A stretch of 64,000 nt of DNA from NCBI GenBank assembly GCA_964016885.1, contig OZ024740.1, positions 299,956,001 through 300,020,000 on the forward strand, in the 5' to 3' direction. The position numbers were made by a program, and so were the translations under genes. The notes under the pieces were generated by a model. It was not told the origin of the DNA. It did not search any database and saw only the letters and a list, made by a program, of their open reading frames with translations. This DNA is from Eledone cirrhosa (taxonomy: Eukaryota). This document shows positions 5,433-64,000 of the stretch, in pieces; the stretch's first letter is position 1, and each line of letters begins with the position of its first letter.

Positions 5433-8400
5433 ATTTGCAAACCCACTGACACCACACCAATACTTAAATTTCCGGTCAGCACACCCCTCACATACGAAAA
5501 GGAACATTCCCTTCAACATGGCAAGGCGCAGCTGCACTATAGCAACACAACCCCGTACTACAAGAAAAAAGATTATGTGACCTGAAAAAAATTCCTTAAT
5601 AAACAAGAATACCCGATGAAACTCATCAACGCAGCCATCTCCAAGGCTAAGAACATCCCAATAACAACACTGAGAAAACCAAAACCCACAACATAGAAAA
5701 GAAAACCCTGCTATCTCTTTTGTCATCACTCACGACCCAGGGAACGTCAACATTGTGCAAACTGCTAAGCAGTATCTCCCGATTCTACAGCAATCTACCA
5801 AAATGAATGCACTCTTAAAAAACACACAGATAATACACCAAGCACCCAACCTTAAAAACTAATTACCAAGGCAAAATTTACGACCAACATGGAATCAATT
5901 AAAGTGACGAAATGCGGGGAACCTAGATGTGGAACCTGTAAACTCATCGAAGAGGTCAAACAGTTGTCCTTCAAAAAACCATCATAATGTCAAGGTCAAT
6001 GCAAACATGAACTGCAAAACGAAAAACCTAATATATTGCGCAACATGTCCACAGTGTAAAGAGTATTACATTGGGGAAACCGGAACGGGACTACATGATA
6101 GAGTCCGGGTACATAAACAACAAATTTAAAGACCCCACAGTCAGAAATACCACATGTAGCGCACACTTTGCATCATGCGGGAAGGGAAAATTCACAATCT
6201 TCCCTTTCTTCAAGATATGGTCGGATAACGAACATTTCCGCAGATGTAAAGAAGAATTCTTCATTGAAAAATTTAAAGCACTACTGAACACGAAAAAATG
6301 AATTAACACTCGGAGGTAAAATTCCATTTCACTACCCCCCCCCCCTCTCTCTTCTTATGTGTACCAGCAACATACGACTCAATTTATACAATTTTTATTT
6401 TTTTTATTTTTTCTAATCCGGAAAAAAAATTCTTTTGGGATTTTGTGAAGAAAATAAATTTGTTGAAAGCACAAGTGAAGCCATTTTTTTCTTCCCCCCT
6501 GTCTTAATATACCTAACTGTACCAAGGATTACACACATTTTCCAATATTCTATCCCCTTGTACAAGACAGAATGGCTAACACACGTTCAAAATCCTCTAC
6601 TGAATCCCTCAAATCGGAGACACTACTACAGGAAATATCAGAAAAACTCACCATAATAATAGATAAATATGATTCCCTTACGAATGCCGTACAAGAAATG
6701 TAACAACAAACACGCAGCTATAGGGAAACACTTGATTCACTAATTACAGACCGACAAAAACAAGAACAAACCTTTTCCCTTGAAATAGCTACATATGAAC
6801 AGAACTCCATCACCAATAATGCATTCAAAGAATGGAATGAACTGAATCTAGAAAAAGAAGCCTACAGAAAAAGAAACCAAATGAAAAACATTTGGAACCA
6901 ACTATTAAATCAAAGAAAACAGGCATACTGGAAAGCCTTGAGGAGTGAAAACAGACACATACGAAATATGGCGTAGCAAGGAACCAGTTATCCTCCCGAG
7001 AAAATTCCGAATTAAAGAAATACCATCGGAATCAAAGGAAGAAACTGCAACAAGACTAAATCTAGCACTCCAAACACTTGAGACCGAAATCACCCTACTC
7101 CGCCTAAGAGTGCCAAAATTCAAAGAGAAATTTGAAAAATGCGACACCACCCTCCAAGAGGAAATAAACAAAAGAAGCAGCGGCAATGTACGTGAAAAAC
7201 TCCTTAACTTATGGCAGACAGATACAACTAGAGAGGAGTTAAAATCAAAGAAAATCTTGGAATCAAGAGCTCAATGGCTTCAAGAATATGAAGATAACTA
7301 TGGGAAAGATCAAATAAAACCCAGAAAACAAACCCATAGGAAACCCCAGAACTCAGGAAAAACACAACAACACAAGAAATGAAGCACCCACACACAATAA
7401 ACCAACAACAACCAGATATCGGGTAACCCCAAACACACAACTACATACAGACCCAATACTCAACACCAGAACCAGATACAACCACTGCCATAACACCAAG
7501 AACAATTACCGGTAACAAAATCAAAGACACATGAATACTGAACGAAACAACAGAAGAACGAGACCCCCATACAGCAAAGACCACGCAAGAGTCTATCGCC
7601 CAACCAGTTACCGGTATGAAGTTCCGGCGGGCCAAAGGTTTCACCACAACAGAAACACCGCTATCCCAAATGGCACCCATTTTTTAGGACTAGGGGCCTT
7701 GCACCAAATGAAAGAAAAAAAGAAAAAAGCACCACCTTTCAAGTGGCACCTGCCGAGAAAGAACCAATCGAACCAAAAATAATCAATATATCAGCCAAGA
7801 AATTAACACAACCACAAAATACAACTGTTAGAAACTGGACTGAAGTTCACTCCCACTCCGAAAGCAGATACAGCCGATGTTATAAAAGACACATAAGAAT
7901 ACTGTCGAAAATTACGCTTAGGAGAATTCTTCCAGGGTGTACAATACGAGGAAGAATCACTGGTGTAAAACAAAAAGTACTTCACACCCCCGCTAAATAG
8001 AGATACATACCTGGAGGAGTACATAACCTGCCTTCGCCGATCAGCACGTACAAATACGGCCGAGACGAAACACAAACGCAACATCCCTACAGACCAACTA
8101 CTAGTATTGAACAAGCTACAAAGGGATTCCTCAATAATAATAAAAGAAGCGGACAAAGGTGGAGCAATGGTCATCATGGACATAAACCACTACAAAGATA
8201 TGGCTCTAGCACACTTGGATGACGAAAACTGCTACAGGAAAATAACTAAAAACGAAGAAAGGAAATCGAGGAACCAAATAGGCAAACTAACAACAAAGTA
8301 CCAAAACAACCTATCACCAAAAGAAATAGATTACCTAACCAACTTCGAAATGAAAACCAGCAATTTCTATGGATTACCAAAAATTCACAAATCCATAGAA

Positions 8401-10214
8401 ATCCAAAACAACATAAAAGGGAAAAAATACATCATACATCGAAGCACCAAAACCGACAGACTTAAAATTACGCCCCATTATTGCTGGCCCAGCCTCAAGC
8501 ACACAACGTCTAAGCAACCTATAAGACATCATACTCAAACCCCTATGTAAAAAAAATTCCAAGCTACATCAGAGATGATATGGAATTCCTTAACTATATC
8601 CCCCAAAAAGTACACCAGGATACAATCCTAGTCAGTTTTGATGTAATAAGCCTGTACACTAACATCCCACACGACCTAGGGATTGAAGCTGTGGACTTCT
8701 GGATTACAAAACACTCAAGTCACATTTCAGAAAGATTCCCCAAAGAATTCATCTTGGAAGGACTTAAATTAGTATTGGAAAACAACCACTTCCTCTTTGA
8801 CAACGAACTTTATCTACAAATAAAAGGAACAGCCATGGGTACCAAAGTGGCCCCTACATATGCAAATAGTCGTTATGGGTCACTTAGAGGCAAAATTATA
8901 TTCCCAACTACAGATAACATTCAGTCACGACTTCGCCTTCTACATTAATAAAAACTGGAAACGTTACCTAGATGACTGCTTCATCTTCTGGAACAGAAGC
9001 CAAACAGACCTACAAAAATTTTATTCGATCTTAAACAGGCTTCATGAAGCTATACAATTCACTATGGAATGTAACGACAAGGAACTGCCCTTTCTAGATA
9101 TCCTCATCATTAAAGAAGGGGAAAATATCATAACGGACCTATTTTGCAAACCCACTGACACACACCAATACTTAAATTTCCGGTCAGCACACCCCTCACA
9201 TACGAAAAGGAACATTCCCTTCAACATGGCAAGGCGCATCTGCACTATAGCAAGACACCCCGTACTACAAGAAAAAAGATTATGTGACCTGAAAAAATTC
9301 CTTAAAAAACAAGAATACCCGATGAAACTCATCAACGCAGCCATCTCCAAGGCTAAGAACATCCCAATAACAAAACTGAGAAAACCAAACCCACAACATA
9401 AAAAAGAAAACCCTGCTATCTCTTTTGTCATCACTCACAACCCAGGGAACGTCAACATTGTGAAAACTGCTAAGCAGTATCTCCCGATTCTACAGCAATC
9501 TACCAAAATGAATGCACTCTTAAAAAACACACAGATAATTTATAGCAGACGCCAAGCACCCAACCTTAAAAAACTAATTACCAAGGCAAAATTTACGACC
9601 AGCATGGAATCAATGCAAGTGACGAAATTTGGGGACCCTAAATGTGGAACCTGCGAACTCATCGAAGAGGGCAAACAGTTGTCCTTCAAAAACCATCATA
9701 ATGTCAAGGTCAATGCAAACATGAACTGCAAAACGAAAAACCTAATATATTGCGCAACATGTCCACAGTGTAAAGAGTATTACATTGGGGAAACCGGAAC
9801 GGGACTACATGATAGAGTCTGGGTACATAAACAACAAATTAAAGACCCCACAGTCAGAAATACCACATGTAGCGCAGACTTTGCATCATGCAGGAAGGGA
9901 AAATTCACAATCTTACCTTTCTTCAAGATATGGTCGGATAACGGACATTTCCGCAGATATAAAGAAGAATTCTTCATTGAAAAATTTAAACCACTACTGA
10001 ACACGAAAAAATGAATTAACACTCGGAGGTAAAATTCCATTTCACTAACCCCCCCCCCCCCTTTTCTTATGTGTACCAACAACCAACGACTCAATTTATA
10101 AAAAAAAAAAAAAAAAATTTATTTCTAATCCGGAAAAAAATTCTTTTGGGATTTTGTGAAGAAAATAAATTTGTTGAAAGCACAAGTGAAGCCATTTATT
10201 TCTTCCCCTCTGTC

Positions 10215-16068: not shown

Positions 16069-18038
16069 AGGAAAATATTTAACCCCGACGGCAGAGCTCA
16101 AGCCGTTTCGACGGTTATTTCTGGACTAAATTAGAATTTTTAGCGTTTTAAATAAATAGCAGATCTTTTCAAGGCGTAATTCCTTATATGGGAAGATTGG
16201 CGTTGTGAAAAGGATTGGTCAAAATTTCTTGTAAACACAATTAAATCTTTCATGTCATTGGGAGAGAGGTGGGGTGGTTGAACTTGCTTGTAGAACAATG
16301 AGGGAGTGGGTGCAGCCGGTTAGGCGTTGAAAGTGAACTCTATACAGCAAATTCTAATGAGTGTGTAAGAATTTAGGATAGTTAGGGAGAAGGCGAAAAA
16401 GAATCTGGAGAAATTAGAGAGGGGACTTTATATAATAGGTTAATAAATTGAGATTGAAAGATAAAAAATAAATTTAAAATTATATAAAAATAATAAAAAA
16501 TAGATAGTAAAAAGTAATAAAAAATCTCGAGAGACAAAAGCAGCTGCTATATTTATTTGGTCGGGTAATGCTATATATAATTAACTGGCGTGAGGGTACT
16601 GATGCTCCAAAAGCCCGATGGGCTGCCTCGGGGTAGGCGAAAGAGGAAAAAGGAAAAGGAAGAGGAGAGGGAGTGGAAGGAAGTGATAGGAAGGGATAAA
16701 GGGAAGAAGAAAATAAAAAGGAAAAGAAAAGAAGTACATCTACCTTTGTTAGCTGAGGTTTTCCCTATCTTGTTCGGCAAGTGGGGAAAAGAAGGATGTT
16801 ACAGCCATTGTCTACCCACCCGGGTCATGAGGGGGTTTGAGGGCGAGGTAAGTCCTACGCAAACCGTGTTTACACGCAGTTAGAAGTTCGTCTTTTTTGT
16901 TTAGGAGTTGGTCTTCGTAAACAGCATTTGTAGTGTTTCCTCCGAGCATAAGTTACACGGACAGGGTCTTAACGTGTAGGAGTTAGCCCTGGAGACAGGA
17001 AGCACCAAGTAAGATTGCATGTTATGTTATTATCTTGGAGGTTATTTTCGGCCGAGGTGACCGATCTTATAAGATTATTCCTACTATATAAACTCGCCGA
17101 AATGTTTCCTGCATTCGGCGTGGATTGTACCGAGACGATGGGCTCCTTACCCTCAAAGGGTACAACGCCAGTAGTACAGACCGGGTCCGTAAACAAATAA
17201 TCAACTTCTTCCGGGACTGGGAAATTACAATCACCCTACAAAAGTCCCTAACCCGAGTCAATTTCCTGCACGTTACCCTCTGCCTCGAAAATGATCTTTA
17301 CTACCCATACAGGAAAACTAACGACAACTTGCACTACATCCTACGTGCTCTAACCACCCTAGAAATATCACCAATAACCTGGTTAAAAACATCTCCCTCC
17401 GCATATCTCGATTGTCAGCTAATGAGCAGATATTCGATGACCATGCGCCTCATTACAACCAGGCCCACAAGCGAAGTGACTTTCGGGAGGAAATATTCCT
17501 TTTATCCAGCTTCCCTTAGTGGAACCAGCGGGCGACGCCGCCGCTCACGCCACGTAACGTGGTAAACCCTTCCCACAATGCCGAGGTGGCCACACCTATC
17601 GGGAAAATCTACTTTAGACTCCTCGAAATACACTTCCCACCACAACACCGTTACCACAACATAATCAACAAAAACAGTATCAAACTCTCCTACTGCTCCT
17701 TACCCAACTTCGCACAAAATCATCGCCTCTTCAAACAATAAGAAACTCCACCCCTATGGAAGAAACAACCTAGACATTAGTTGAGAGCCGACCAGGAGGT
17801 GTAACTGACCTGATAGATCTACGCCCCCCTCAACAACAGATGCCGAGAACGTAACATGATCTACCAATGCAACGTGGGGACGGAAACCTCCAACAAAGCC
17901 TATATAGGATTAATCGCTTGTGACTTTAAGTTCCGGCTCTACCAACACCGACATACGTTCCGAAACCCGGCCCAGCGACATGCCACTACACTTTCGGGCC
18001 ACATCTGGGATCTCCAAGATAATAACATAACATACAAT
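16069..18038. mobile_element. PLE (family C) with internal inversion
   Basis: Minus 16069-17041 is the GIY-YIG tail, 3' UTR and HHR-like motif. Plus 17042-18038 has LYRDDGL, VNFL, HFPPQHRYHNIINKNSIKLSY and IYQCNV..KAYIG. Confidence 0.9.
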
Positions 18039-25178: not shown

Positions 25179-27365
25179 AGTGGCAGCACACTGGAAGGTA
25201 ATATCCGAAGTGGTAGAGCACTCAGTATATGGGACGAGTTAGGTAGAAGTGGTTACACAACAGTTAGTTCACCATACGGAGAACAATTGTTTCACCTTAG
25301 CGTTTCCTCAGCTCGTAATGGACATGGTTATACGGAACAGGAAGTACAACTGTATGAACGCGCATGCGGAGAATCGGTCACTTCACTCAGGCAATACTAA
25401 TTTGCGTGCGAGAGGTGTAAGGGAGGTAACTGCGAAAGTCCGAAAGTTTCTAGTTGATAAGAAAATTAGGATGTTGTTGTAATTCAATACGAGGCTTTGT
25501 AATTATGTAAGAGGTGTTTCCAGACGTGTGGACATCGTGTGATGGCTTTACATTGAATGGGACCATACGTGGCTCGCGAGTTTCGTGGATGAAAGTCTGT
25601 CCCGGTACCTAAAGGTCGACTGGTGGTTCAGGAAGCGTTCCTTAAATCGGCCCTCTGCCATACGCACATAGAATTTGACCTCCTGTGGTTGATTTGGCCG
25701 GTTGGAAGTTACCAAAACTTCATAAACTACAGCAGGTGTGTTGCATTGCTGTTGAAGGGGACAAGCTTCGGGATTACGGAAAGAGCACCCTGGTGGGGTG
25801 TTGTTCTTAGGGCCGTTGGTGATGTGGGCCTTCATGTTCTTAGCGCAGGAGTATGCTAGTTTTACTTTGTGTCGGTTAAAGATGGAGCGGTATTTATGAC
25901 CTATGGTAAAAGTGTCTATCTAAGAGGGCTAGAAATGTTTAGCCTACATTGGTTTTAACGTTGAGTGAGAAGGGAGGAGAGAACCAAATAGTTTGTCTAT
26001 TGTTACGCTTTGTTTTCTTATTGCTGTTGTTGTTAGTGGGAGAGTAAGTGATAGGTTGCGAGAAGTCGCTGTTAGCTAACGCCGTCTTATAGTAGGGTTC
26101 CACTCTGTCAAAGATAGCCTTATTAGAGGAGAGGTTTGAGATTCTAGTACTGATATTATTTACGAAGTTTCTAAAACCTGTGGGAGGGTGGCATGAGACC
26201 TTGTGAATATAATTGAGTTTTTCGTTAAGCTTACGGAAGGGTCTGTAGGTGTGTGTGCGAAGGTCTAAATTAATATCTAAGAAATCTACTCTAGAGAGGT
26301 TGGTAGCTACTGTTATCCTAAGACCTAAATCCTTGAAGGTAGAAGCTAAGTCTTTTTTAAACCGGTCGAATTTGTGACCACTTTTATGGCTTGATAACTT
26401 CAGCCCATCGTCGCGGTATATCCTGTGTGGAAGTCCGGGAATCTAACACGTAATATGTCTAAAATAAATAGGCCAACCGAGTCGCATACATCAGCACTGT
26501 CAAACGATCCCATCGAGACGCCGAAAAGGTCTGAATTTGTTGACTTCTTTGCCCAAGCTACCCCGTTTTTGAAGAGAAGGGTTTTCTGGCAGTGTGCGAT
26601 GATTTTCCTGTCTAAACCATGGACGGTAGTGTAAGTGGTAGCAAAGTCTAACGCTTTGTTTAGCAGGGTCTCTGAGATCGACGGGCAAAAATCAACAATG
26701 TCAAACTGTGTGAACTTCGCTTTTTTAGATTTGAAGGAGTTAAACCACCTGATTAGGGAGTCGCTGTCCTCCCACTGGGACAGGTTGGACTTGGTCCTAA
26801 TGGTCTTAACTATGTTTCTAAGTATGGCTTTACTGACTAGTCCCATATCTGTGCGTGCCGGGTTTAGTAGTCTACATGTGTGGTTAGAAGTAAAGTCTAC
26901 CTTGTGATCTTTCAGGGTGAAGAACGTCTCCCGCTTAGCTAGAGATTGTAGCTTCTTATCTACCTTAAGGGTGGCGGCAAGTTCTTTGGCTTCTGTATTA
27001 ATGTCGTGGTAGGCCATAGGTTTAGCTTTCTTATATTTGGAAGTAATAGCGTTATGGGCTAAGTGGCTGTAAGTGGTGTTGTCGACTTTGTACATATTAT
27101 TAGTTTTGTCGGCAAGAACGAAAGTGTTATTAGAAGACCTAAATTTTTTAATATCATTTCTAAGATTAGTTTGAAAGGTGTTATGGTGTTTGCGAAAGGA
27201 AATGTTAGCGACTAAGTCAAGAAGGTCCGCCTCGAAAGGAGCAAAATCAGTTACCTCAGGAGGGTAGGCTCTCGATTTCAGGTTGAAGGTGTTATTGGGG
27301 CCTGTAATTTTGCCGTCAAAGCTTATTTCGAAGTTGCAAGGCTTATGTATAACGTAATTCTCGTC
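25179..27365 (-). mobile_element. 5'-truncated PLE (family E): RT, GIY-YIG and pseudo-LTR
   Basis: LADKTNNMY, TLKDHK, CRLLNPA, QFDIVDFCPSISE, MGSFDSADVCD; VVYEV..FYV..AEGRFKERF.NH. Confidence 0.92.
25279..25314 (-). ncRNA. Minimal hammerhead ribozyme (family E)
   Basis: GAG-CUGAGGA-aacgcuaaggu-GAAA-CAAUUG-UU-CUC. Confidence 0.7.
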
Positions 27366-27771
27366 AGACAAAATGCATAGGAGATGCAGGATTCTTTAGA
27401 AAAAAAAAAGATAATAATAAAATAAAATAATGGTCTTCAAGCTGAGGTGCCTGTCCTAAAGAGAAAGCTAATCATTGCTATGATAAAGTTAAATGAATGT
27501 TGTTTCTGATCCACCCGAAGGGAAAAAGGCAATGTACAAGTCAGGTTTACACACACACATCTTCTCACTCATCAGCTCTCAAACCAGCAACATGGTTTCG
27601 CAGGATTTAATTAAGAGCACTATCTTTAAAAGCTGGATCGTGCAACATAAAACTAAATCTTCCTGCTGGCATGATGTATGTGTAGTAAAACAAACAACAT
27701 TGTCTCTCTGTTGATAATGTTAAAATAACACTACTCTTTTCGCATGAAACATCAATAATAATAATGATAAT

Positions 27772-32920: not shown

Positions 32921-35900
32921 CTATCTAAGGCGGGTAAAATTCCCGAGATCCATGGACGAGTTCTCTGCAGCGGTCTCTGTCCCTCATTATCGCTGCCATG
33001 TCCTGCGTCTCCAACAGACCAGTGTCTGTCCTTAGGGCATCAACATACGTTAACCTTGGTCTTATTCTTCTAGTGTGTCCATGTAGGGGCTCCCAAAGGA
33101 ACACTGAGTGCAATGTCAACTCTGGATGTCGGTGAGCATGTCCAGCTAACCTCAGTCTCCTCTCTGTCACTTTTGAGCTGACTTTTGGGATGCTCCCATA
33201 CAGCTCTGAGTTTTTCATCCTCAGTGTATACTGATTAATGTTCAAAGCCATCCTCAGCATTCTCGTGTAGCCCCCATCCACCATCTGGGTGAGTTTCTTG
33301 GTCAGTGTCCAAGTCTCAGACCCATACAGCAGCACAGACTCCACTACATCAATGAAGAGGCGGATTTTCAGGTCTCTACGAAGGTCCGACTTCCACACCG
33401 ATCTCAAGCTGTGGCACGCCGCCCAGGCCTTGCTCTTCCTCTCAACCACATCATCTTCCGTATTCCCAATCTTTGCTCCCAAATACAGGAAGCCCTCAAC
33501 CAATTCTAGCGGCTTCCCGCCTTCATTAGTGATACCCTCTTGCTTCTCAACATTCTCTACCAGATATTTTGTTTTAGTCTCATTCATTCTCAGCCCCACA
33601 CTCATCGACACAGTCTCAACCTCCCGCATCAAATCCTCTGCCTCCCTCACTGTATTTGTCACCAAAACTATATCGTCGGCAAATTCAGCATCCGATACCT
33701 TTTTCGCCCTAACTCTCCTGCTCTGAGCCGGTGCCACAGTAAAGCCAGAGTCCTGGTGTTTCTCCAGTGCAAGGCGCATACAATAGTCCACTACGATGAT
33801 AAAAAGGTAGGGAGCCAATGTATCTCCCTGGAGCACTCCAGCCAGTATCTCAAAGAACTCTGTCATCCCATCAGGTGTAATGACTTGGGCTTTGGTGTTG
33901 GTCTAGAGCAGTGATATCAGGTCCACTATCTTCTTGGGGATTCCATAAGCCTGTAAGATCTTCATCAGGCAGTAACGGTCCACAGAATCAAAGGCCTTCC
34001 TAAAGTCAATGAAAACCATGACAGCAGGAAGGCACTTTGCTCTAGCTCCTTCTAAATATCCTCCTCAGCATCAGGATGTGACTGGTGGTTGATCTACCCT
34101 CTCTAAAGCCGTTCTGGTTGTCCCTGAGCTTCTTCTCCATCTCAAGCTGGATCCTGTTAAGAATCATCCTGTTGAGGGTCTTTGCCACAAGTGACGTCAG
34201 TGAGATCCCCCGGTAGTTGTTGGTGTTAGAGAGATCTCCCTTCTTGGGCACTGGGACGATGTTACTGATCCTCCACTGATTCGGGGCAACTCCTTTCTCC
34301 AGTGCCCCGTTACAGAACCCCAGGATGATATCATCAAAATCACACCTCTTCATCATCTCTGATGCCACTCCATCTTCTCCATGAGCCTTGCCCTCCTTGA
34401 TCCTCTTCTTGGCTCTTTGAAGCTCCTCTCTGGTGAAGGGCTCTGTCTCAACATCCAGTTCCTCAAACAGCCGCCTGATCTCCCCAGTGCTCTGGGCTGT
34501 GGAGGGTGGCTCTCCTAGTAGGGTCCTAAAATGGTCTAGCCATTTCCTCTTCCTATCCTCGGGCCCCGTTCCCTGGATCTGACTCGAACACCTTTTCTTC
34601 CTCCCTGTGATCTCGTTGATGATCATCCAGCTCTCCTTACATCCAGATCTGTCAACCGCTCTCTCCACACTTCTGATCTTCTCTATCAGTGCCTCCTCTC
34701 TGACCTCAGTGTAAGCGGTACAGAGCTCTTCCCTCATCACCTCCACAGTCTCCATCCTCTCTTCCGTAGGATCAGCATAGAATTGGTCCTTGGCAGCTTT
34801 CAGGTGTTCTCTGGCTGCACACACTTTTGGGTTTGCAGAGCTGACGTGCTTCCCTTTTATTCTTCTTCCTCGGCACCGGGGTTTCACTTGCTTCCGCCAC
34901 TGCATTGGTGAAGTGCCCGTACCTCCTCGTCACACTCTCATCAGTCCATCCAATCTCTCTCTCCCCTGACTCTCTACACAGAGCACTAAACCTGTTTCTC
35001 ACTTCCACTGTGAACCTCTCCTGTAACCTATCATCTTCCTTGAAAGCTCCCCAGTCATAGATTGCTCTCCGGGGCCGAGCCGTGCTCTTTCTTAAGCTCA
35101 CCCGGACCCCACTCATAACAAGCCGGTGGTCACTACCCAGTGTACTGAAATAGTTGTATGGTTCTGTGTTCAGAACACTATTCCGCCACTTTTTCCTCAC
35201 CAGAATGAAATCAATCTGGGACTTGGACAGGTGCATATCTGAGATGTAGGTCCACATCTTCCCCAGATTCTTCCTAAACCTTAGGTTGGTCGCCATCAAG
35301 TTCGCCTCCAGCAGGGTGTCTCTCAGTAGTCTTCCATTTCGGTTGGTGTTGTTATGTAAGTACCAGCAAGGATCTTCACTGCCCTCCTTACTCAGATGTG
35401 CATTGAAGTCCCCCAAAACAAGCAGGATATTGTGTGCCTGAGTGGTGTTGACAGCTCTACAGACCTCCTCATGGAACTCTTCCGCACTCACATCACTGTC
35501 CTCCTCAGTTGGACTATAGGCTGAGATGATTGTCAGTCTTGGGTTTCCATTGAAGGTCACCCTCAACACTCACGGGGAGATTATTTCCCTCACCAACAGA
35601 TTGGTTTTTGCACTGAACACAAAACCCACTCCTCCTACTGCAGCATTTGTTGTGTTCTTCACTGCCGATGTAGCGATGCGCTGGCTACTCTTCCCGATCA
35701 TCACACTCCTCACGGGCTCATCGTGTAGGATCCTGTGTTCTTGGATCGCAAGTATCTGTATACCACTCTCCTCGATCAGATGTCCCAACTCCTCTCTCTT
35801 CTCCAGCGTCCGAATAGTCCTCACTTTCAAAGTGCCCATTTTGATGGCTCTTCTGCAGGACAAAACTGCATTCTTTATATTTGTCTCAGAGACAGCTGAT

Positions 35901-36244
35901 CCATCATCCACTGGCCCTCTCTGTGGCTCTAAGCCAGCAGAGTCATAACGACCAGGCTGCTCCTTGACAGTGTAATTAGGGGCTCTAACCCTAGTGCTGT
36001 TAGATCGACTCTCCATATTTATTTTCAATGGCTGATGATACCTTACCGGCGCCACTCGAATAAGGTAGTTATTTAACCCATAAATGGAGCCCTAACAGGT
36101 ACTACCACCCCGGGCCAGGGCAGACTTGGGAGTCAAGACAACTAAGGGGTAACTCCACATTCCCCACAACTCCTGAACTCCCGACCTGGAGCCTTGCCAC
36201 TGGATGTAGTTGCCACTGGATGTAGTTTAATGTCATACCCAGAA
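32921..36244 (-). mobile_element. Near-full-length RTE-like LINE (AP endonuclease plus RT), frameshifted
   Basis: APE: GTLKVRT, LAIQEHR, ISAYSPT, LGDFNAH, SQIDFILV, GSDHRLV. RT: PVPKKGD, NYRGISL, QNGFREGRST, GVLQGDTLAPYLF, EFADD. Short (TAGA) tail; GC-richer than flanks. Confidence 0.95.
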
Positions 36245-43830: not shown

Positions 43831-43874
43831 ATAATCTGATATAAATTTCTTGTATCGTGAAAGTTATAGATAAT

Positions 43875-44092
43875 GGTTTCTTATATAGGCACAAGGCCAG
43901 CAATTTTGGAGGAGGGGAAAGTCGATTAAATCGACCCCAGTGCGTAACTGGTACTTTATTCTATCGACCCCGTAAGGATGAAAGGCAAAGTTAACCTCGG
44001 CGGGATTTAAACTCAGACCATAAAGGGCCGTAAGACTATGCTGACAAAGCATGGCGTCCGACCCTCTACCGACACTACCAATCCACCGCCCT
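43875..44092 (-). mobile_element. tRNA-derived SINE (long variant)
   Basis: Family motifs with an extra ggggtcgatttaatcgac hairpin segment. Confidence 0.9.
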
Positions 44093-45730: not shown

Positions 45731-46213
45731 TTATATATATATATCATTCACACACGGTAGTGTGTTAATAATATTCTTAAGGTCAACTTTTTCCCAACGA
45801 CATCCACTTCTAGCACTTGTCACTAATTCAGTTCCCAACCAAATTTGATCAGGTTTACTGCACTAGAATAGACTCATCCCACGCTATAGTTTGGTATAAG
45901 GAAATTCAAATTTGGATCAGTAGTAAAAAGGTTACGCTAAAATATGTGTGGTCAATTAGTGGTGGATAAGGCCCCTCATTGACTTTGACTCATCATAACC
46001 TTTTAAATTCCGAATATAATTTCATCCTACCTATCTCAGTAGATAGAACACGATAAGTTGAATCGAAATTTGTCAATATTGAAAAGATTGGTGCGATAGA
46101 AATCGAGTTGTGTGACTTTAAGTGACGAAATCAAATGAAGAGTAACGCTAAGGGACATAACTCTAGTATAAATCCATCGTAGCTGCACTAAGTAGTTTCC
46201 CTTAATTATAGTT

Positions 46214-47317
46214 ATTCACAAAAGGCTTGATGACATTTTTGGAGATCCCCCAAAATGGCTTATCCTTTTGGAAAAATGAATCTTCTTTTGTTTGCTGATT
46301 TGATGCAATTGCCACCTGTAAATGAAAAACCAGTATTTTCTAGAATTTCATCATATGATGCCAAAAGAACAGAAATTGGGATTAGTGGGCATTCATTGTG
46401 GACATACTTTCAATATCATGAGCTAACCATTAATATGAGACAAAAAGAAGACAAAGACAACTACGTTGATATTTTGGGAAGAATTAGGATTGGTTCCCCA
46501 ATAGATTCTGATATTAACATTCTTAAAAAATGATGCCTATTTCCTGATAGAAAAGCATCTGTTGAAGAAATTGCTAAAAAATTGATTGAATTGTATTCTA
46601 TTCCTGAATTAAAATTTTTATGCATTTTACCTTTGAATGAAGCTGTTGATGAGTTGACTAATGAAATGATTTAAAAATGCAACATAAATGTAATGAAACT
46701 TGCTGCAAAATATTCTGGTATGAGACAAGTAAATGGAAGAAAAAAGAAAAATGTTGAAAAAGGCAAAAACAAGAAAACTTCTGATACTGCTGCTAAATGT
46801 TGGAATTGGTGCAAGAGTGATGTTGAAACGAAACATTGATGTAGATCAAGGCTTATGCAATGGTGTTATTGGAACAGTTATTGAATTAATTGGGAATGGA
46901 AGCAATGTTGACAAAATTTTGGTGTCTTTTGATACCAAAAATGACAAACCCATTTTCATTGGAAGAGTTCAAGCAGACTATGAAATTTCTCCTGGTGTTT
47001 TTGCCACCAGAACACAATTTCCATTGTCTCTTGCTTACTCTATAACAATTCACAAATCACAAGGAATTTTTGTGGATGGAATAATTGCTGATTTAGGAAA
47101 TCAGATATTTTCTGATGGTCAAGCTTATGTGGCTCTTGCAAGAGCCAGAAAACTTTGCAATGTGGATCTCTGTGACTTTGATCCAAGATCATTGATCATG
47201 GTTGACAAATCTGCATGGCAAGAGTACAACAAACTACGGGCTAGTACTGGAAGAGCAGATTTGCCCCCATTGCCACCTTTCAGGCAAAAAGCATCCTTGC
47301 ATTGCAAATGTTTCTAG
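46214..47317 (+). pseudogene. PIF1-family (SF1B) helicase C-terminal half, Helitron-type, disrupted
   Basis: IHKRLDDIFG, PFG..LLLFADLMQLPPV, LTINMRQ, VGIGARVMLKRNID..GLCNG, QFPLSLAYSITIHKSQG, GQAYVALARAR. Confidence 0.92.
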
Positions 47318-48257
47318 CATGCCCAAGAAAAAAAATGAAAAGACTTAATTTGGAAGAAAATTCAAACCAACCTGCCAAAAAGAAGAAAAAAAATGAAAAC
47401 AGCCAAACTTTAATCCCTAAACATCAATTGATCAACCAAAGAAATGCTTGTTTTGCAAATTCAGTTGTGCAATCACTGAATCAATTGCCTGAATTTGTAG
47501 AGTATTTGCATAATGTTAACAACATGAATGAAGTACATCAAGAATTAAGCAATATCATTTGTAATAATCATAATAATGTCTCTAACTTCAGAAGAAGAAG
47601 AATTGGAGGAAGATTTCATGATGGAAATCAGCAATGTGCTCATGAATTTTGGAAAGAACTGTCTCTACATTTGGACTTGGTATTTAGAGAAAAACTTCAA
47701 TTTATTCAAACTGATCATACTAGATGCATCCGATTGCTTTAAATAACAATGTTTGCAATTGTAATTCAAGACCTGGATGTGGTATAGAATCTGAACTTCC
47801 ATTTCAAATAAAAGAGGATTTGATATTAAATCCTATTAATAACACACAACAATTTAAATCTCTACTTTCAACAACAAATACTTTGACTAAATACTGTGAT
47901 ATTTGTTCTGAAAATACTGAGCATCAAATAACTTCAAGAATTGAATTTACTAACGATTTCAAATATCTTGTCATCTCAATTAGTAGATTTTTCATTAATA
48001 ATGAAGGAAAACAAAGAATTAATTGTGATATTATGAACTTTAGCTCAAAGAAGCAGCAAATATATGGCACAAATTTCACATTAAAAGCTGCTATTCTTCA
48101 TGAAGGAGTATCATCTACGGGAGTCCATTATACTTGTCTGGTAAAAAGTGGTGCTGAAAATTGGGATGAAATTAGTGACAACATTATCTAAAAAAGGCAC
48201 AATAAATTTCCTCCTAAGTTACCTAATATGGTTGTATTGTTTATGGAAAAAATTTAG
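47302..48257 (+). pseudogene. Ubiquitin-specific protease (peptidase C19/USP) domain, disrupted
   Basis: Cys box LINQRNACFANSVVQSL; QQCAHEF (cf. QQDAHEF); CDIC zinc knuckle; YLVISISRF; His box LKAAILHEGVSSTGVHYTCLVK..W.EISD. Intronless. Confidence 0.85.
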
Positions 48258-48261
48258 ATTT

Positions 48262-48515
48262 TTGATTTTGGACTATTGATCTTGGACTACCAACTTATAA
48301 TTAGGAATAATGTCAATTCTGGACTATTTCATTTTGTTTTGGACTTGCTGATTATTTTGGACTAAATGCTGATTCTGGACTACTTAATTTTATTTTTGAC
48401 TACTTGCTGATTATTTTGGGCTAAATGCTGATTTTCGACTACATAATTTTATTGTGGACTAAATGCTAATTCTGGACTACTTAATTTTATTTTGGTCTAA
48501 CCGCTAATTATGGAC
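48262..48515 (+). repeat. Degenerate minisatellite (GGACT-containing ~15-20 bp units)
   Basis: Repeated tggacta/gctgattattttggactaaat units directly after the USP stop. Confidence 0.8.
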
Positions 48516-48920
48516 AAATTATTGTTGAATTTGAGCACACTGTTGATTGGCATTTTATTTATTTACTACTTAATTTTATTTATTTTTGACTCAGTTATTT
48601 TAATTGCTTGTTTTTCTAGCATCTTTAATAACTTCACTTGTTAAGTTAAACTCTAAATTGATCATTAGAGTATAGTCAATTATAGCTTTGTCTCTATGGG
48701 CACACCTGAAGGCTTGTAGTAAGGGTGTTCAGAAAAGGCAAATATCTCTATTGATTATATTCTACAAAATACCTTTTCAATTTTAATATTTTGAATTTTA
48801 TAGAAATATTGAAATGAAAAATTATGTTTTATTGATGAAAAAAGGATTGTAAATGCCTTAGCAAATGGTCAAGGTAATTTAAATAAAATAATTTGCTGCA
48901 ATGCCTTAAAAAAAGGGGGA

Positions 48921-50080
48921 TTAGACCGAAAAATGCGGGCGCATGTGTATTAATATTCTTAAATAATAATTGTTTCTACTTTTGGCACAAGGCCAGCAAT
49001 CCTTGAATAATAATAAACCTGGAAAAGTACAGGCCAAGTAGAATTAACTCTTAAAATATTGAAGATGGAATTTGAATTTAATGAATTAAATGTACAATAA
49101 TAAGCCTATGACATCACACTTAATCACAAGGAAGTGAAGGTTGTTAAGAAGGCATGGAACAGGACGTTTCGGTGCAGGCATTTCTGTGCCAGCGTTTCGG
49201 CACTGGCATGTGGAATGGTCATTCCTAGCTCTTTCATGGATAGATTTAGAATAATACAAGAATGACATAAAGACAACCAAGATCATTTTTTACTTTAATT
49301 ATTAATTAACTAATTAGAAACGATCTATAAATCCCATTGATTCATTAGGAATGGTCTAGTTAATCTTTGGTGCTAATCTCGAAAGGTTAGTCTCTGCTTT
49401 CCTCATAAGAAAGGAACAGTAATCCAGATTATCAATCAGAATGATATCGCATTTGATCACTTAATTTTCTTTTTGAAATACAGTTGACTATCGCTAATTG
49501 TCACTCAAAGGAACTGTAAAAATGACTGACAATTAGGGAGAGTCACAAAAAATAAAAGTTGGGCCAGAAATGGCGCTGACAATTAGGAGAGTTAACTGTA
49601 ATTCGATCTTGACAAATTTTGGCTTAACTTTTTTTAAAATGAATTTAGATTAATAATTTTAATATGATGACAATTTATGCAAAATTTAGCTCATTACTTT
49701 TTACTATTAATTTCAATTAATTTATAATGTCAATTTTTAAAGTAATACAGTATAATTAACCCACTAAAGGGAGAAAAAAGTGACAACTTAAATGGACTGA
49801 CAATTTATGTACAAAAGATTGATGACATTAATTGCATTTGGTTGGCAAAATTGTGATTGCTGACTTAGGTAAACTGATGACTTAATATCTAATAAATCCC
49901 CTAATTCATTATTATTTCTTATTATCTTTTGGCATTGCTAATTTTACTGTACATTGAATTCATCAAATTCAAATTCCAGCTTCAATATTTTAAGAGTTAT
50001 ATTCTACTTGTCCTGTACTTTTCCAGGTTTATTATTATTTAGGAATATTAATACACATGCGCCCGCATTTTTCGGTCTAG
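48921..50080. mobile_element. Paired inverted Helitron-like 3' termini (arms ~48921-49098 and ~49948-50080)
   Basis: ATGCGccCGCAT hairpin (50057-50068), then CTAG (50077-50080) followed by T. The mirror copy ends CTAA|T at 48921. Confidence 0.7.
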
Positions 50081-50107
50081 TACATATATATATATATATA
50101 TACACAC

Positions 50108-50994: not shown

Positions 50995-51850
50995 CTAGGC
51001 AAAGCTAAACTCGGCGGGATTTCAACTCAGAGCGTAAAGGCCTGTAACTCTATGCCGCAAAGCATTTCGTCTGACGCTCCACCGATATGGCAACCCACTA
51101 ACCTAATTATAGAAATTGTAATAATAATTGTGTTTACTTTCAGGTCAGGCACAAGGCCAGCACTTTGAATGGAAAGGGAAAGTCGATTAAATCGACCCCA
51201 GTGCTTACTGGTAATTTATTGTATCGATCTCGTAAGAATGTAAGTCAAAGCTTAACACCGGCGGAATTTCAACTCTGTGCGTAAAGGGTTGTAACTGTAT
51301 GACACAAAGCATTTGGTGTGATGCTCTACCGATGCAGCCAATTCACTAACCTAATTATAACAATTGTAATAATAATTGTTTCTACGTTTGGCACAAGGCC
51401 AGCATTTATCCCAATGCATTACTGGTACTTTATTTTATCGACCCCGTAAGGATGAAAGGCAAAATTAACCTCGGCGGGATTTAAACTCAGATTAGAAAAG
51501 GGCGTAACTTTGTGCTGCAAAGCATAGCGTCTGACCCTCTACCGATACTGCCAATCCACCACCGTATAATAATAATTCTTTCTACTTTTGGCACAAAGCC
51601 AGCAATTATCCCAGAGCATTACTGGTAATTTATTTTATCGACCCCGTAATAGTAATAATAATTGTTTCTACTTTAGGCACAATGCCAGCAATTATCCCAG
51701 TGCATTACTGGTACTTTATTTTATCGACCCCGTAAGGATGAAAGGCAAAGTTAACCTCGGCGGGATTTGAACTCAGATCATAAAGGGACGTAGCTATGCT
51801 GGAAAGCATGGCGTCCGACCCTCTACCGATACTGCGATTCCGCCGCCCTA
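50995..51850 (-). mobile_element. Head-to-tail array of about 5 SINE copies or fragments
   Basis: Repeated family motifs separated by aataataattgtttcta spacers. Confidence 0.9.
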
Positions 51851-52129
51851 ATAGTAATAATAATGATATTAGTTCCATTAGCAAAATGGACAAGAATGTT
51901 ACACGTGCACGTGCGTGGGTGTACATGGTTCTTTGCAAAAGATTCTCGTTAATATTTATTCAGCGAGTCTGGACAAAGGTAATGAGGAAAGACTTCGAAT
52001 TAGGGGGACTTATTTGTTGCACATACGTCTAATTGCCCAGTATGTGGTCTCCTAATTTTTGCTGGGGCCTCGTGTTTTATGGCGATTACTTTTTATTGTG
52101 ATTCTTAGGGTGAGTTTCCTTTTTAACAT

Positions 52130-62718: not shown

Positions 62719-63530
62719 TTTCTTTATTAACCACAAGGGTTTACATAAAGTAGACATTAAGGACAGTGCAGGACAATACAGGACGGTACAAATGGGCATT
62801 TCTGCGTGTAAAAAACAAAAACAGAAGATGTAACAAAAAAATAACAATGAAAAATTCCCCAATAGGGGGGAGAATTCGGAGGGACATTTGTGGAGAAAGC
62901 CCAGTAAAAGGCCACAGTGACCCTGACCACCAAGGCAAGTGCCCTCTCCCAGTTTTCCACCTTTAATTTACAGATATATACTCAGAGTAGGCCCATTCAC
63001 TCGGGCCATTCTTGCTTTTCTCACCCATCTTTCAACAAAATGCTGGGAAGAGAGCACTTCCCTCTCTACTCTGATTTTCCTTTTCAAATGAAATTTGAAA
63101 AAGTCAATCAGAGCATCACCGAAGAGGTAAGTGCTCGTCTTCAGCCCTTTCGAACGTGTCCACCATACTATCTCTTTCGCCATGGCCACCAGACAGATAA
63201 AAACTGCCTGCCCTTCCCAGCTAAAGGAGGAGGGCGGGGCAATCCTCACGATGGACTCAGATGATAGCCGGATCCGTCCTACACGCGACAGCAGGTGTTC
63301 GACATAAACCCACAAGTCATCAATTTTCGGACACTGGACGAGTGCGTGCAGGACAGTATCGTCGCCCTGCGCGCATCTCGTACATGCCCGGCTGACGGCA
63401 CCTCCATGCCTGTAGAGTTTATCCAGAACTGGCAAGGCTCCTCGGTAGCACTTCCAGGCCAGAGATTTCTGTAAGTTGTCCATAGACCCTGGCCCGAAAG
63501 TTCTTCCGAAGAGATTGGTTAGTTGATTTT
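62678..63530 (-). mobile_element. 3' end of an L1/Tx1-like LINE (zf-RVT) with polyA signal and (TTA)n tail
   Basis: LAWKCYRGALPV..CTRC..DTVLHALVQCP..LW; minus-strand aataaa then (tta)n. Confidence 0.85.
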
Positions 63531-64000
63531 CGTCGACGCTTCCCAAGGATCTCCAGTTGATGTTAACTCTGTTTCCCAGGACTTCATAGTTTTGCCCAAC
63601 AACTGTCTGATGTTATCTGCCACCTTGAAGATCTCCAGGCTTTTGGTGATCCAAGAATGAGGCACCATGTCAAATGCCTTTTTGTAGTCTATATATCCCA
63701 TGGCAAGACTAGTGTGTCTCCTCTTGCAATTCCTCATTACCATCTTATCAATAAGTAACTGGTCCTTTGTACCATGTGACTTCTTTCGGCATCCTTTCTG
63801 TTCGTCCGGTAACAAGTTGTTTGTGTGGAGGTGATGGTAGATTTCCTCAGACATAATGCTTGTCAACAGTTTCCACATTACGGACAGACATGTGATAGGT
63901 CTATAGTTGGTAACATCATTACCCTTGATTCGGTCTTTCATTATCAGAACTGTGGTACCTTTTGTCAACCACTCTGGTACCTCACCTGACAACAAGCAGT
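63531..64000 (-). mobile_element. R4/Dong-like LINE reverse transcriptase fragment (continues beyond window)
   Basis: [52 protein letters not shown]. Confidence 0.88.

Follow-up and report, generated by a model that had tools for sequence, protein, structure and literature searches.

Canonical Helitron1 (HLE1) transposons, such as Helraiser, begin with 5' TC, end with 3' CTRR and insert between A and T without target duplication. Relatives of the Helitron2 (HLE2) type are the closest described systems to the element analysed here, which occupies positions 45744 to 50080 of a 64,000-nucleotide stretch of Eledone cirrhosa DNA (assembly GCA_964016885.1, contig OZ024740.1, positions 299,956,001 to 300,020,000 of the forward strand; hereafter the window) and couples a PIF1 helicase to a USP deubiquitinase domain (C19, PF00443, UCH). 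In the accessible text of the HELIANO survey, UCH is one of 20 domains that Helitron-like elements carry stably; it occurs almost exclusively in HLE2 and is enriched in HLE2 subgroups c and d, which come mostly from lungfish and axolotl; DUF6570 is treated there as an HLE2 marker (Li et al. 2024, PMC11417382). Helentrons are animal HLE2 elements that carry a cysteine deubiquitinase, OTU or VTD, together with a C-terminal AP endonuclease (PMC9741609, PMC4067079). Helitron VTD domains, the only class assayed, are active deubiquitinases, and Erven et al. 2022 proposed that the various deubiquitinase classes meet a common requirement, to keep transposition proteins from being degraded (PMC9741609). 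We found no transposition test of the role of these deubiquitinases.

An HLE2-type transposase without endonuclease, a 5' stem-loop and short inverted repeats are also known from the proto-Helentron of Phytophthora and from the "HLE2-reverse" elements FoHeli3-5 of Fusarium (PMC4067079, PMC11417382, PMC5148889). Like the elements described here, the proto-Helentron has a CTAG 3' end and an A/T target (the slash marks the insertion point), but it starts with TT and carries SET/TIR domains (PMC4067079). The inverted repeats of these elements measure 12–16 nt, and in the accessible parts of the three papers neither element is described with a USP or with a 140–220-bp inner mirror of its 3' end (PMC4067079, PMC11417382, PMC5148889). 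HELIANO reports no proto-Helentron-like element among 404 genomes (PMC11417382).

As far as descriptions can be compared, the elements reported here share with HELIANO subgroups c and d the HLE2 transposase, DUF6570 and stably carried PF00443. The HELIANO text places four domains in the RepHel frame, UCH not among them, and the other 17 in separate open reading frames, whereas here UCH is the in-frame C-terminus; the usual HLE2 target is given as T/T, whereas the elements here insert at A/T and have TC/CTRR ends; and a long inner copy of the 3' end is not mentioned in the text accessible to us (PMC11417382). Unlike Helentrons, they have the USP at the C-terminus and no endonuclease (PMC9741609, PMC4067079). 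An initial annotation of the window, made from its sequence, had proposed a Helitron-like element with a C19 USP on its RepHel, in a lineage that recruited USP instead of an OTU protease or an endonuclease. The element and its USP stand, with the class now specified as HLE2/Helitron2 without AP endonuclease; as a novelty the claim does not, the pairing of Helitron and USP being already published at the domain level, which limits the surprise (PMC11417382). Beyond that published text go the in-frame C-terminal USP fusion, an intact young family and a concerted long inverted repeat. We read the element as an HLE2 transposon whose C-terminal USP probably aids transposition by deubiquitinating the transposase or proteins close to it, and give the functional steps of this reading a probability of roughly 0.6.

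Borders and class of the element

The window copy is a decayed, non-autonomous Helitron of 4.34 kb (A/TC...CTAG/T, no target duplication). When the 3.0-Gb host genome was searched with its USP DNA, 43 matches were obtained among the 40 of 49 candidates that were scored: three at 68%, and 40 at 89–100% (family A), the latter number including the window copy and some split pieces. For border comparison, 16 kb was fetched around 20 of the close copies. PIF1 and USP, whose co-occurrence elsewhere in the genome had been named as a check, are both present in all 20, and homology stops sharply at window positions 45744 and 50080. The 5' end could be located in 19, 18 of which read A/TC, and the 3' end in 17 (CTAG/T in 15, CCAG/T in one and CTAG/C in one), in agreement with the earlier assignment of CTAG/T as the true terminus. 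The flanks are mostly TA microsatellites; judged from these flanks rather than from empty sites, no target duplication is visible.

The start of the element had originally been placed at 46214. It lies in fact at 45744, and 46208–46214 is an internal deletion joint at which around 3.3 kb is gone: two of the 20 copies (L019/20 and L033/34) hold this extra segment, with DUF6570, HUH Rep motifs and helicase motifs I–II (Pfam on pieces of L019). The Rep domain and 5' TC that were to be looked for upstream in longer copies are thus both found. Family-A Rep DNA was matched at 90% or more at only five places in the host genome. The window copy itself is dead, internally deleted and without Rep.

All its parts, save the inner arm of the repeat described below, are on the forward strand. 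At the 5' end (45744–45768), defined by the boundary shared with other copies and by its fold, A/TC precedes a hairpin of 9 bp that encloses a GGTA loop and has, in the window copy, one stem mismatch. Next to it lies the 5' half of a short asymmetric terminal inverted repeat of the Helitron2 type (45769–45780, 12 nt), matching its partner at 50039–50050 in 11 of 12 positions. The PIF1 remnant (46214–47266) runs from motif III to motif VI and includes the 2B domain; it contains stops and one frameshift and is 54–55% identical to the intact family-C protein. Pfam matches PF05970 at 46234–46530 (E 2.9e-5, slightly short of the curated cut-off) and Pif1_2B (E 9.3e-8) and UvrD_C_2 (E 8e-4) at 46733–47314, while three-frame translation gives LFADLMQL (motif III), TIHKSQG (V) and YVALARAR (VI). 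A basic linker (47267–47427), bearing a +2 frameshift in the window copy, includes PAKKKKK (47371–47391), likely a nuclear localisation signal; from motif VI to the Cys box is 320 nt. The USP remnant (47428–48257) has its Cys codon at 47449, its His codon at 48126, Ser-Asp at 48174–48179 and a premature stop at 48189, with UCH matches at 47245–47739 (E 8.6e-5) and 47724–48188 (E 5.3e-7) and the motifs NACFANS, QQCAHEF, GVHYTC and WDEISD. The initial annotation, which had followed PIF1 through an NLS-like linker into a USP across frameshifts, agrees with these Pfam matches and motifs; frameshifts and stops affect both domains. Among 14 other family-A copies in which both motifs were found, motif VI and the USP Cys box are in frame in ten, and the interval is stop-free in eight. 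The minisatellite that had been noted after the USP (around 48260–48530) is present at 48261–48533, with 38/59-nt units; it lies inside the element, and other copies have it too.

HUH Rep and PIF1 share one protein in intact copies of family C, in family B1 (both families are introduced below) and in the long family-A copies, the window copy having lost Rep by deletion. DUF6570 is matched at E 2.2e-17 in family C, 9.2e-18 in B1 and 1.6e-10 in a long A copy. In all three families, a 10–13-nt motif beside the 5' hairpin has an inverted partner 30–46 nt from the 3' end; the folding energies of the 5' hairpins are −5.5 and −10.2 kcal/mol. The three families begin with TC, end in CTRR and insert between A and T. 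Their ends and target are thus those of HLE1, and the T/T (or T/C) insertion usual for HLE2 is not seen; T/T is, however, the usual rather than the universal HLE2 target, with the proto-Helentron and FoHeli1/2 as further exceptions (PMC4067079, PMC5148889). HLE1 would have a stable hairpin before CTRR and neither DUF6570 nor an asymmetric repeat, but DUF6570 and the short asymmetric repeat, both present here, are HLE2 characters, and the 3' hairpin is very weak (−1.2 to −1.5 kcal/mol). An AP endonuclease C-terminal to the helicase, which defines Helentrons in the strict sense, is absent. The element has, by sequence, a Helitron2/HLE2 transposase with canonical-looking ends, the helicase tree described below containing no named reference elements, and we regard this identification as practically certain.

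An in-frame USP domain and its possible role

The three 68% matches led to two sister families, B1 and B2. In B1 the frame runs for 1,904 residues to a single TAA and then continues for 507 residues, in the order DUF6570-Rep-PIF1-UCH; a sense codon replaces the TAA in B2 copies and in a contig of run X1. A protein search of the host genome revealed a further family, C, with 12.9-kb elements that are 98.6–99.8% identical. Of eight young family-C copies retrieved together with both flanks, seven retain open frames 2,230–2,245 residues long. One copy has an open reading frame of 2,224 residues from an ATG, with DUF6570, Helitron_like_N, PIF1 and UCH (residues 1946–2203) in this order; no endonuclease family was matched in it at E 0.01 (Pfam). 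From these sequences, family C, with at least seven intact autonomous RepHel-USP copies, is a candidate for a recently active animal HLE2. As a natural single-frame RepHel-USP element with intact and nearly identical copies, it is suited to testing the role of the USP. One intact example is L233:3204-9878 (host contig C2, around 253,894,000–253,906,900), and others are among L235–L248.

The predicted structure of the B1 USP domain (pLDDT 89) has the complete fingers-palm-thumb, ubiquitin-binding fold, its best structural matches being USP21, USP2 and USP30 (E 1–4e-17, TM 0.76–0.79, 17–18% identity). Across 18 aligned USP domains the catalytic Cys and His are each kept in 17. After the His box, families A and B have Ser-Asp and family C has Asn-Asp, as read from sequence; the Ser-Asp state also occurs in the active enzymes USP16/30/45, according to the accessible text of PMC10867860. 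These catalytic residues are kept across families in which synonymous sites are saturated (pS 0.87–0.89 versus pN 0.37–0.39), and across distant animals. In fold and catalytic residues, the domain therefore looks like an enzyme, a predicted deubiquitinase.

The position of the domain is shared by relatives in other animals. PF00443 occurs in 17 of the 120 homologues listed (316 in all), always C-terminal to PIF1, and the proteins bearing it include ones named from a sponge and a brine shrimp. In other relatives the same slot is occupied by OTU (4 of 4 checked) or Ulp1 (3 of 3). A helicase tree was made by a quick method from 100 of 121 rows, the other 21 having incomplete coverage. UCH labels are mixed on it with OTU and Ulp1 labels and require 11 changes, of which well-supported branches enforce at least nine; the labels are precomputed Pfam assignments, with domain positions checked for 24 proteins. 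The pattern suggests repeated swaps among USP, OTU and Ulp1, whose number the tree does not fix. The alternation of USP, OTU and Ulp1 in this slot suggests that the class of enzyme is less important than its activity.

In the mechanism we favour, RepHel supplied in trans would nick at the 5' TC, peel the strand off and resolve at CTRR, as in other Helitrons, and the USP would most likely shield DNA-bound, covalently attached RepHel from ubiquitin-driven removal. Mobilised derivatives exist without Rep (family A) and without both RepHel and USP (family B1), and the latter indicate that the USP is not needed in cis. At least 40 near-identical copies of the B1 spacer were found; the 20 mapped loci, chosen by this spacer, are short derivatives without RepHel and USP in which both arms of the inverted repeat are retained.

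The B1 burst (L195–L232) consists of 3.4–3.6-kb non-autonomous derivatives, mostly more than 99% alike and of at least two deletion types. The B1 arm gave 938 first-look candidates in the host genome. Many B1 derivatives bear two to four stacked 5' termini; multiple 5' termini are also described for the FoHelis (PMC5148889).

Some results weigh against a protective role for the USP. Selection on it is weaker than on Rep and the helicase: dN/dS (the ratio of non-synonymous to synonymous change), in pooled, non-independent estimates inflated by post-insertion decay, is 0.23 for B1 versus A, 0.45–0.56 for B1 versus B2 and 0.46 for C versus an older subfamily, while Rep and helicase together give 0.10–0.16 for B1 versus B2, and Rep 0.23 and helicase 0.34 for C versus the older subfamily. 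Within the decaying family A the USP value is 0.88. In addition, 29 of the 100 tree rows have no recognisable protease at the RepHel end, some of these proteins being truncated. Taken together, the alignments indicate that purifying selection on the USP is real and moderate, though weaker than on the core.

The synonymous distance between B1 and B2 (L053/54 versus L057–L077) decreases along the coding region, being 0.51 in Rep, 0.31 in the helicase tail and 0.17 in the USP; this gradient suggests that the two families have recombined close to the 3' end.

Alternatively, the USP might target not RepHel but host proteins present where the element inserts, for instance histone H2A/H2B, PCNA or repair factors. 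The basic linker and the fusion would place it in the nucleus on DNA, and a chromatin role has been proposed for the OTU domains of Helentrons (Thomas et al., PMC4067079). Its structural neighbours include USP21 and other USPs of chromatin and repair, although at 14–19% identity these are uninformative on substrates. The exchange with OTU, VTD and Ulp1 fits a general anti-degradation role better than a single defined substrate, and we consider host targets unlikely, if conceivable. Less probable still is that the domain is a slowly decaying passenger or a non-ubiquitin protease, for instance one that processes the RepHel polyprotein, as the cleavage of RepHel into subunits has been proposed for the Helentron OTU (PMC4067079). 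The dN/dS of 0.45–0.56 in the closer comparisons, the dispensability in cis and a Cys box without the usual glycines (NKRNACFANS) would suit a passenger; the retention of catalytic residues over saturated distances and the complete ubiquitin-binding fold in the model would not. Protection of RepHel is the role we prefer, in agreement with what PMC9741609 proposed.

With regard to the origin of the domain, no protein of 157–501 residues reached E 0.01 as the parent of a host retrocopy in a word-index search of limited sensitivity. Extended to 1,222 residues, this search gave one match, an annotated Octopus bimaculoides protein that begins with helicase motif VI and is, by its sequence, a fragment of a related Helitron; its 70% identity to the family-C tail implies that the lineage occurs in Octopus bimaculoides too. 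The possibility, raised at the outset, that the USP is a processed host pseudogene is thus not supported, the best shorter match being this Helitron fragment. A full phmmer scan with the USP returned 117 matches, many of them short or partial, of which 11 have helicase or RepHel sequence upstream; five score above 45 bits at 41–88% identity, the rest, a few short fragments aside, being 23–49% identical. No close free-standing host USP was found in the word-index and phmmer protein searches. Among the 20 of these 117 relatives that were scanned, tandem arrays of two to seven USP domains occur in P0128, P0129, P0132, P0144 and P0159.

A long inverted copy of the 3' end

The 3' terminus had first been described as a hairpin followed by CTAG/T. 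CTAG/T holds, but the hairpin of the window copy is very weak, its stem being 4 bp long and the last 46 nt folding at −1.5 kcal/mol, and local 3' hairpins fold at −1.5 and −1.2 kcal/mol across the families folded. The dominant structure, absent from the initial annotation, is a 140–220-bp inverted copy of the 3' terminus. In the window, the inner arm (48920–49100, reverse strand) repeats the terminal ~141 nt of the element in inverted orientation, together with the base pairing with the target T, and is interrupted around 48971–48999 by a fragment of a common repeat. It is separated by an 843-nt spacer (49101–49943), essentially confined to family-A copies, from the outer arm and 3' terminus (49944–50080), which contain the short-repeat partner (50039–50050), the weak hairpin (50057–50068) and CTAG (50077–50080), before the target T at 50081. 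The segments 48920–49100 and 49944–50081 align in three pieces (49 nt at 98%, 46 nt at 91% and 56 nt at 93% identity); inverted alignments in mononucleotide-shuffled versions of the window element (50 shuffles) reached at most 46 columns.

All four families have such a copy, of 141 nt in A, around 190 nt in B1, 174–229 nt in B2 and 211–224 nt in C. The inner arm lies 0.5–0.85 kb inside the 3' terminus and includes the base pairing with the target T; its start is present in all 20 other USP-selected family-A copies. The arms are 96–100% identical within a family, 65–72% between A, B and C, and 90% between B1 and B2. Over 170 columns of the B1 and B2 arms, 15 have changed jointly in both arms and none in one arm only. 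The spacers of 843, 738, 665 and 527 nt in the four families are unrelated except for one 19-nt match, while the sequence directly upstream of the inner arm is common to A, B2 and C, which suggests one origin. When loci were selected by an arm, a partner was found within 1.5 kb in 26 of 30 for A, 30 of 30 for B1 and 19 of 20 for C-related elements, counts that include both arms of some elements and hence are not of independent elements. C-related derivatives keep both arms with the spacer reduced to ~165 nt. The spacer is flipped in one of 39 B1 copies (L215:7867-8984; host contig C3, around 198,310,900–198,312,000), indicating that the arms can recombine.

The GC-rich B1 spacer (L054:2657-3085) contains a frame of 143 residues with a Cys/His pattern. 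Pfam found nothing in it; its atlas neighbours, PHD-finger clusters at scores of 0.78–0.82, are a lead only, and the frame may be a captured fragment.

These observations would fit a fold-back terminator. Once displaced by the helicase, the last 140–220 nt could pair progressively with the inner mirror copy, giving a duplex whose end lies at CTAG/T; this arm-arm duplex might serve as the terminator in place of the weak local hairpin, and pairing between the arms would keep them alike. Against such a role stand four of the 30 family-A loci, in which an outer arm lacks an inner counterpart over 1.5 kb (a large insertion accounts for one of these loci), the non-independence of the arm-selected loci, the absence of a flipped spacer in 30 family-A copies and, on inspection by eye, no clear sign of copy-by-copy conversion of family-A arms after insertion. 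Alternatively, the inner arm could go back to a single ancient insertion of the element into itself in inverted orientation, for which a published model exists (PMC5148889), and persist without function, its likeness to the outer arm being maintained by recombination between the two from time to time. It ends exactly as an insertion would, with CTRR and the target base, and the upstream context common to A, B2 and C points to one origin, as does the flipped copy to recombination. As a relic, it would have survived in four families with unrelated spacers and in derivatives that have lost ~7.5 kb or most of the spacer, when the loss of a neutral long inverted repeat would be expected. We regard this as a substantial possibility for the repeat, although not the favoured one. 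The 3' end of HLE2 elements is poorly understood in its definition, and as a concerted feature of four families the inner mirror is a candidate alternative terminator. More tentatively, and on balance doubtful as a whole, the elements may form a distinct animal Helitron2 lineage with a fold-back terminator, mutually correcting arms, a swappable cargo loop and an active USP that protects the transposase from ubiquitin-based host defence.

It is very improbable that the 1.16-kb inverted-repeat block is a separate element resembling a miniature inverted-repeat transposable element (MITE), despite its look of a terminal-inverted-repeat element and a locus, L208, that first appeared to be a solo block, or that the helicase-USP is part of a virus or of a host retrocopy: all 30 family-A spacer loci run on upstream into element sequence, the elements have the Helitron hallmarks of an HUH Rep, TC/CTRR ends and insertion without target duplication, and a close host USP was not found in the protein searches. 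The attribution of CTAG/T to a separate inverted-repeat transposon was ruled out by shared borders, ends and spacer loci. L208 as a solo inverted-repeat cassette was ruled out as well; it is a whole non-autonomous element with an inverted spacer.

Outside the host genome, the long repeat was seen in none of the 12 metagenome loci examined out of 80, whose contigs are mostly short or distant and may stop before the end of the element. A literature search, with Repbase, Dfam and most subscription journals outside it, found no description of a long inner mirror of the 3' end, and one on the host group listed nothing relevant.

Other repeats in the window

The arm has repeatedly and independently received a common short repeat at one AATAATAAT site, at 48971–48999 in the window and in one or the other arm in further copies of family A. 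Other copies of this short repeat lie at 43870–44092 and 51000–51870 of the window. This repeat presumably resembles an octopus short interspersed nuclear element. No further RepHel pieces were seen elsewhere in the window when its frames were read by eye. Retrotransposon-like reverse transcriptase/endonuclease frames, likewise recognised by eye, are located at 7969–10011, 17092–17562, 25942–27395, 32928–36091 and 62971–63998.

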